Below are positions 1 to 386 of a DNA stretch of 386 bases, one piece after another. The translations under genes and the position numbers were made by a program. Source of the stretch: Escherichia coli. GTDB lineage: Bacteria > Pseudomonadota > Gammaproteobacteria > Enterobacterales > Enterobacteriaceae. Under the pieces are notes generated by a model that saw only the letters and a list, made by a program, of their open reading frames with translations, was not told the DNA's origin and ran no database searches. Numbering within the stretch: the stretch's first letter is position 1; each line of letters begins with the position of its first letter. The stretch lies in NCBI RefSeq assembly GCF_003334355.1, contig NZ_QOWP01000110.1; one strand, written 5' to 3'.

Positions 1-35
1 ATGCTTCCATCGGAAACGATGATCTGGCAGCCTGA
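1..35 (+). CDS. 3' end (last 10 codons plus stop) of an IS3-family orfB transposase, IS629-like; partial, 5' end outside the window
   Basis: Frame with codons starting at position 3 reads A-S-I-G-N-D-D-L-A-A-stop (TGA 33-35); positions 1-2 complete a codon begun outside the window. The stop lies about 40 bp inside the element terminus, as expected for orfB of IS3-family elements. Only 10 codons are visible, so the call depends on the adjacent inverted repeat and on recollection of the IS629 transposase C-terminus. Confidence 0.45.
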   Translation, partial: ASIGNDDLAA

Positions 36-52
36 GTTCACAGATAAAACAC

Positions 53-77
53 TCTCCAGGAAACCCGGGGCGGTTCA
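53..77 (+). repeat. Terminal inverted repeat (right end) of the IS629-like element, about 25 bp; inner boundary approximate
   Basis: + strand 53-77 is tctccaggaaacccggggcggttca; its complement TGAACCGCCCCGGGTTTCCTGGAGA starts with the IS3-family TG dinucleotide and contains the CCCGGG palindrome at 64-69. The 25-bp length is from memory of IS629-type repeats; the other end is not in the window for comparison. Confidence 0.45.
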
Positions 78-216
78 CTTTTCGCCAGTCCTGTAATTCC
101 ATACTTAGATGTCCGTCTATATCAGATGGGCGTCTAAGTTACCAATTCTCGTCTGATGGCTACATACGGCGGTCAGTTTACGCTTACGTGTCAAGAGGGA
201 TTTCTCAGCCCCTCAC
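78..216. other. 139-bp spacer between the two IS ends; no recognisable gene or RNA; probably a remnant of the original insertion target
   Basis: Bounded by the IS629-like terminus (…GGTTCA, 77) and the IS2-like terminus (TGGATTT…, 217). No ORF with a credible start and ribosome-binding site lies wholly inside it. It contains the near-repeat AGATGTCCGTCTA / AGATGGGCGTCTA and a small hairpin at 195-214. Confidence 0.5.
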
Positions 217-257
217 TGGATTTCCCCCTATATTTCCAGACACCTGTTATCACTTAA
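217..257 (-). repeat. IS2-like right inverted repeat (IRR), 41 bp; the outer terminus is at position 217
   Basis: Terminal TGG at 217-219 gives …CCA-3' on the transposase-sense strand, the IS3-family CA-3' end. The repeat contains the orfB stop codon at 228-230. Two positions, 224 and 243, differ from the canonical IRR as recalled. Confidence 0.7.
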
Positions 258-386
258 CCCATTACTGGCCCGCTGCCGTAGATATTCCCGTGGCGAGCGA
301 TAACCCAGTGCACTATGCGGATGCCATTCGTTATAATGCTCGAACGCCTCTGCAAGGTTCTTTGCTGCCGTTAACCCGTCTGGTTT
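228..386 (-). CDS. insD: C-terminal 52 codons plus stop of the IS2 orfB transposase (DDE/integrase-core protein); partial, N-terminus outside the window
   Basis: - strand translation from 386 down to 228: [52 protein letters not shown], with stop TAG (+ strand cta at 228-230). The …[18 protein letters not shown]… segment is the conserved C-terminal motif of IS3-family integrase-core transposases and matches the IS2 InsD C-terminus as I recall it, except Ser for Cys at the codon on + 264-266. Confidence 0.8.

Follow-up and report, generated by a model that had tools for sequence, protein, structure and literature searches.

Disruption of an IS gene by another IS is an already known kind of event. 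The described systems closest to the locus considered here are the IS66-family accessory gene tnpA, the IS629/IS1203 element of the IS3 family, and the fusion frames that arise where an IS lies inside a gene. IS629/IS1203 is 1310 bp long, and its IRL and IRR match over the 13 terminal bases and then at 9 of the next 12. The terminal repeats of the IS66 family begin with GTAAGCG. In strain MDR_56 (locus L001), the annotated IS66-family tnpA encodes the 139-aa "IS66-like element accessory protein TnpA" (WP_000422706.1); behind it come tnpB and a partial IS66 family transposase gene (a pseudogene whose C-terminus is missing). This tnpA reads MELQDWRKEPRKKYS... (MELQDWRKEPRKKYSNEFKL...), and its intact product scores 80.5 bits against the NCBIfam profile NF047595.1 (cutoff 74), with the profile alignment beginning about 10 residues downstream of the tnpA ATG.

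The window, i.e., the whole 386-nucleotide stretch of Escherichia coli DNA that was analysed (GCF_003334355.1, contig NZ_QOWP01000110.1), carries on its minus strand an open frame that starts at an ATG at 102-100 and runs into the right end of an IS629/IS1203 copy. This hybrid frame is a truncated real gene of 8 codons fused to IS629 antisense sequence, and there is very little doubt that it is a by-product of one IS landing in another, left over from nested IS insertion, rather than a gene. The features of the window, in window coordinates, are the following:

1..77, plus strand: IS629/IS1203 (IS3 family) right end, with the 3' end of orfB (stop TGA at 33-35) and an imperfect inverted repeat at the terminus
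1..102, minus strand: hybrid open frame, 34 codons without a stop, translation MELQDWRKVNRPGFPGECFICELRLPDHRFRWKH
78..102, minus strand: 5' remnant of the IS66-family tnpA, running from the ATG at 102-100 through codon 8 (MELQDWRK) to the first base of codon 9
78..187, minus strand: IS66-family left end, with the GTAAGCG terminus (181-187 on the plus strand), an 85-base leader and the tnpA start
188..216, no strand: 29-bp flank separating the left terminus of the IS66-family element from the IS2-like one, equal to L002 3188-3216 (L002 being the corresponding locus of E. coli PSS-12)
217..386, minus strand: right end of an IS2-like element of the IS3 family, with the terminus TGGATTTCCCCC at 217 and the orfB 3' end at 386-228 (TAG at 230-228), outside the hybrid frame

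All of the components (the IS629/IS1203 right end, the IS66-family left end and the IS2-like right end) are known, and only the particular arrangement is rare; the whole window as one contiguous arrangement was found in none of the 5426 complete E. coli genomes and in none of the PLSDB plasmids.

The start of the hybrid frame

The frame opened by the minus-strand ATG (cat at 100-102 on the plus strand) takes in the first eight codons of tnpA and one further base (102-78), continues through antisense IS629/IS1203 sequence (77-1), and is still open at position 1. Translation of window 1-102 reproduced exactly the residues given for it in an earlier sequence-only reading, which had also described the frame as crossing the terminal repeat of an IS629-like right end and running antisense to the orfB 3' end. 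Both descriptions were borne out: window 1-77 is the right end of IS629/IS1203 in plus orientation, its repeat ends ...CGGTTCA at position 77 (TGAACCG as the reverse complement), and the orfB stop at 33-35 corresponds to L002 3033-3035, the end of the gene annotated as "IS3-like element IS1203 family transposase". The same 77 bases are 100% identical to the IS629/IS1203 copies at L002 and at two further loci, L009 and L010. On the plus strand of this region, a 31-codon frame (MLPSETMIWQPEF...; window 1-96) begins within the 3' end of orfB, out of register with it, and leads outward over the IS629 terminus into the tnpA stump.

The location of the ATG turned out differently from what had been claimed. 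It had been placed in a spacer, but an IS66-family element, lying on the minus strand, has its left end at window 78-187. What looks like a spacer between the ends of two IS3-family elements is thus a third insertion sequence, a decapitated one, and the frame is the stump of its first gene. This 110-bp segment was found in 2959 of the 5426 complete E. coli genomes, with the matches lying over annotated tnpA, and the matches to the left end stop at query positions 110-112, i.e., at window 187-189 (4106 records), which fixes the boundary of the element. In locus L001, the annotated tnpA starts at the base homologous to window 102. In an alignment of 61 bases (window 110-50 against L001 3033-2973, minus strand), the part upstream of the junction (33 bases) matches with one synonymous exception in codon 3, and MELQDWRK opens the product both in the window remnant (minus strand, 102-78) and in the L001 gene; the 8-residue remnant itself is too short to be scored against the profile. 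By homology, then, the window ATG at 102-100 is the annotated start codon of the IS66-family accessory gene tnpA, and as the start of a known gene it cannot be regarded as a chance start. An in-frame TAA lies at 141-139 on the minus strand, 13 codons upstream, with no start-type codon in between, and therefore the ATG is the first start of its frame. The earlier view of a frame most likely due to chance, with a fusion through an insertion as another possibility, stands for the fusion and for the chance nature of the IS part, and has to be given up for the start.

The statement that no clear ribosome-binding site is present was correct as well: nothing resembling AGGAGG stands at the usual spacing in the 18 bases before the ATG (GACGGACATCTAAGT), and intact tnpA copies have the same weak leader ahead of their annotated start. 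A simple sigma-70 promoter scan of the window returned no site. An Rfam search at a permissive threshold gave only the AfaR sRNA at 141-194 on the plus strand (19.1 bits, where the gathering score is 100; E = 0.39), which was set aside as almost certainly a chance match.

The side-by-side comparison of the minus strands places the junction precisely. With a slash marking the breakpoint, the intact copy reads ...CGAAAAG/AACCTCG, and the window reads ...CGAAAAG/TGAACCGCCCCGGG, the latter part being the IS629/IS1203 terminus; in a longer view, the two are ...TGGCGAAAAG/AACCTCGTAAAAAG... and ...TGGCGAAAAG/TGAACCGCCCCGGGTTTCC..., respectively. Hence, IS629/IS1203 abuts tnpA between the first and second bases of codon 9. 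The junction codon is GTG, which comes after eight authentic TnpA residues, and antisense IS629 sequence follows from there on. Downstream of the tnpA stump, tnpB and the transposase gene are absent both in the window and at L002 of PSS-12, and IS629 intervenes. Just inside the right terminal repeat of IS629, the minus strand carries a weak, inward-facing terminator-like hairpin at 56-68 (CCGGGTTTCCTGG and then AGAGTGTTTT); a single site of this kind was found, with 0.3 expected in shuffled sequences.

Extent of the frame and its variation among IS629/IS1203 copies

The sequence beyond window position 1 was taken from PSS-12 and from other IS629/IS1203 copies, not from the window's own source. 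Window 1-206 is identical, in one piece, to L002 3001-3206, and PSS-12 is the only one of the 5426 complete E. coli genomes that shares the junction. There, the hybrid frame comprises 86 codons (L002 2842..3102, minus strand), 52 of them past window position 1; in the coordinates of the PSS-12 record, NZ_AP027697.1, it occupies the complement of 107,684-107,944. In the allele of L009 and L010, a TGA occurs 25 codons earlier, which leaves 27 codons past position 1. Since both alleles, the long-frame and the short-frame one, have exactly the sequence of window 1-77, the hybrid frame in the window's source would have 86 or 61 codons. An early stop just beyond position 1 had been considered in the sequence-only reading, together with the conservation of the frame among IS629 copies; upstream extension through PSS-12 and the other copies gave no such stop and 52 or 27 more codons. 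Conservation, by comparison with the PSS-12 copy, was as follows:

L002, L011 and L012 (IS1203-type): 97.8-100% identity, 77 open IS codons
L009 and L010 (IS629 class): about 98.5% identity (98.2-98.6%) over the last 278 nt, 52 open IS codons
L006, L007 and L008 (variants): 91-97% identity, 52 open IS codons and then TGA
Edwardsiella tarda plasmid: 80% identity, 9 open IS codons
Sodalis: 74% identity, 8 open IS codons
Stutzerimonas: 74% identity, several stops in the frame

So, the antisense frame is not kept across IS629 copies and their relatives, being stopped after 52, 9 or 8 IS codons. In L009 and L010, which were sampled from the 98.6-98.9% IS629 class, the stop arises from a CTA to CTC change that is synonymous (Leu) in orfB, and the L006-L008 variants carry the same CTC in the alignment, with the codon-level check covering L009 and L010. 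An overlapping gene under selection would not tolerate such a stop-making synonymous change. This polymorphic stop is a stronger test than codon usage, which has little power for 86 codons that overlap a real gene on the opposite strand.

To judge the length of the stop-free run, the last 400 bases of IS629/IS1203 were shuffled 5000 times with dinucleotides preserved. The 25 IS codons inside the window stayed open with P = 0.38, and the full run of 77 IS codons had P = 0.043 in that particular frame and P = 0.12 if a run in any one of the three was counted. Other stop-free runs on the antisense strand of this 1310-bp IS measure 159, 89, 70 and 64 codons. The stop-free extension into IS629 is within chance; being somewhat long for one frame, it is best called unremarkable rather than typical. 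Of the three frames in which the right end of IS629 can be entered, one stops at once at the terminal TGA, another stops after 12 codons, and the present one stops after 77 or 52 codons. The IS part contains no ATG, and the only start-type codons of the hybrid frame are the tnpA ATG, the GTG made by the junction and a GTG at codon 63.

As for the 86-aa product, it has an odd composition, rich in Pro (12 residues), Cys (4), His (4) and Trp (3), the NCBIfam scan matched it to no protein family, and an exact-sequence look-up did not find it in an index of 153 billion genes. The PGAP annotation of PSS-12 has no CDS at the hybrid frame.

Origin of the junction and alternative readings

The following course of events would account for the locus. 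An IS66-family element whose left end lies at window 187, and whose first gene (tnpA) starts at the minus-strand ATG at 102-100, would have received IS629/IS1203 inside codon 9 of tnpA, either by insertion or by placement in a later rearrangement, with the right end of IS629/IS1203 facing the tnpA start. Reading from the tnpA ATG would then give MELQDWRK, the junction GTG and antisense IS629 codons that happen to be free of stops by accident, 77 of them in the IS1203-type allele and 52 in the other common allele.

The PSS-12 copy of IS1203 (L002 1768-3077) points to an additional step. Its flanks are TGG and CTT, whereas other copies are flanked by CCT/CCT, GTG/GTG and CCA/CCA; it starts with CGAACC and not with TGAACC; and its left flank is a fragment of IS2 orfA instead of the remaining part of tnpA. 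The lack of a 3-bp target duplication and the presence of IS2 orfA at the other flank indicate that a later rearrangement removed the body of the IS66-family element in PSS-12. This rearrangement may have been recombination between IS copies or a deletion adjacent to IS629; such deletions, leaving the IS intact, have been described in connection with the IS excision enhancer (PMC9330008). With its tnpA destroyed, this IS66-family copy is presumably dead.

Note that the window and PSS-12 differ on the outer side. The matches to the IS2-like end of the window lie over genes annotated as "IS3 family transposase" and "IS3-like element IS2 family transposase". Only 29 bp separate this end from the terminus of the IS66-family element in the window; in PSS-12, an IS2-like end of the same orientation is found 354 bp further out (L002 3571; region L002 3188-3740), which suggests an adjacent deletion or an independent insertion. 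Additionally, in many O26, O145 and O103 EHEC chromosomes (e.g., NC_013361.1 1371361-1371732), an IS629 fragment annotated as "integrase core domain-containing protein" adjoins an IS66-like tnpA. The matches there fall in two pieces spanning 372 bp, and this junction therefore differs from that of the window.

Three other readings of the frame were weighed against nested insertion. The frame could belong to a real protein-coding gene borne by IS629 on the strand opposite to the 3' end of orfB, and the 77 stop-free codons of the IS1203-type copies, uncommon for one given frame (P = 0.043), speak in its favour. At the same time, such a gene would have no ATG within the IS, and the sole internal start-type codon, the GTG at codon 63, would leave only 24 residues; the frame is cut by the orfB-synonymous change in copies that are about 98.5% identical and is cut early in relatives of 74-80% identity; and the product has no NCBIfam match, no PGAP CDS and no exact counterpart on record. 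Within the library searched, no paper connected IS629 to an antisense gene, and searches combining IS66 terms returned no matches. A genuine overlapping gene thus fails every test that was applied (own start, conservation, family match and annotation), and we regard it as extremely improbable. Hardly better placed, and very improbable in its turn, is the leading view of the sequence-only reading, according to which the whole frame, ATG included, is a chance feature of a non-coding spacer. It agrees with the want of a Shine-Dalgarno-like motif ahead of the ATG and of a promoter-like site in the window, but is opposed by the fact that the ATG, like the 85 bases ahead of it, belongs to a conserved IS66-family left end in which it is the annotated tnpA start, by the position of the ATG as the first start after an in-frame stop, and by the NCBIfam profile alignment that begins some 10 residues downstream.

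The remaining reading treats the frame as incidental and the transcript as the product of interest: a surviving tnpA promoter would send antisense RNA into the IS629 right end and lower the expression of orfB from that copy. The geometry permits this, as the intact tnpA leader (103-187) points into the IS. However, the window scan identified no promoter, that very strand carries the terminator-like hairpin just within the end of the IS (although one such site is near chance expectation), and the exact junction occurs in 1 of the 5426 complete E. coli genomes, a rarity that gives no sign of selection for it. This reading has, in our estimate, only a slim chance of being right. The same slim chance is given to the more novel proposal that the tnpA leader has stayed active and drives transcription into IS629, and maybe also translation of a 61-86-residue hybrid, with the antisense RNA damping the transposase of that copy. 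A copy-specific antisense transcript from the tnpA leader, if real, would be of minor interest. Under nested insertion, which we prefer, the hybrid frame most likely has no function, and residual activity of the tnpA promoter would yield, at most, a short junk peptide along with RNA antisense to the 3' end of orfB.

Comparison with known systems

For annotation, the locus is to be treated as a remnant of a tnpA pseudogene, with no new CDS. It is an example of nested IS insertions in Escherichia genomes that raises no new question and matters little otherwise.

In comparison with annotated IS629/IS1203 copies, the right end, the only part of the element that the window contains, shows no difference, the orfB stop and the terminal inverted repeat included. 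With the IS66-family tnpA (NF047595.1 / NF038385.1; e.g., WP_000422706.1), the window shares the start codon, the first eight residues, the leader and the terminal repeat. Unlike an intact tnpA, it keeps only 25 of the 420 coding bases, the remainder being swapped for IS629 sequence, and neither tnpB nor the transposase gene follows. As in the fusion frames made elsewhere by insertion of an IS into a gene, an authentic start and N-terminus are read into the IS up to the first in-frame stop. In contrast to the usual case, however, the interrupted gene is itself an IS gene, of which 8 residues are left, so that no functional domain is carried into the fusion.
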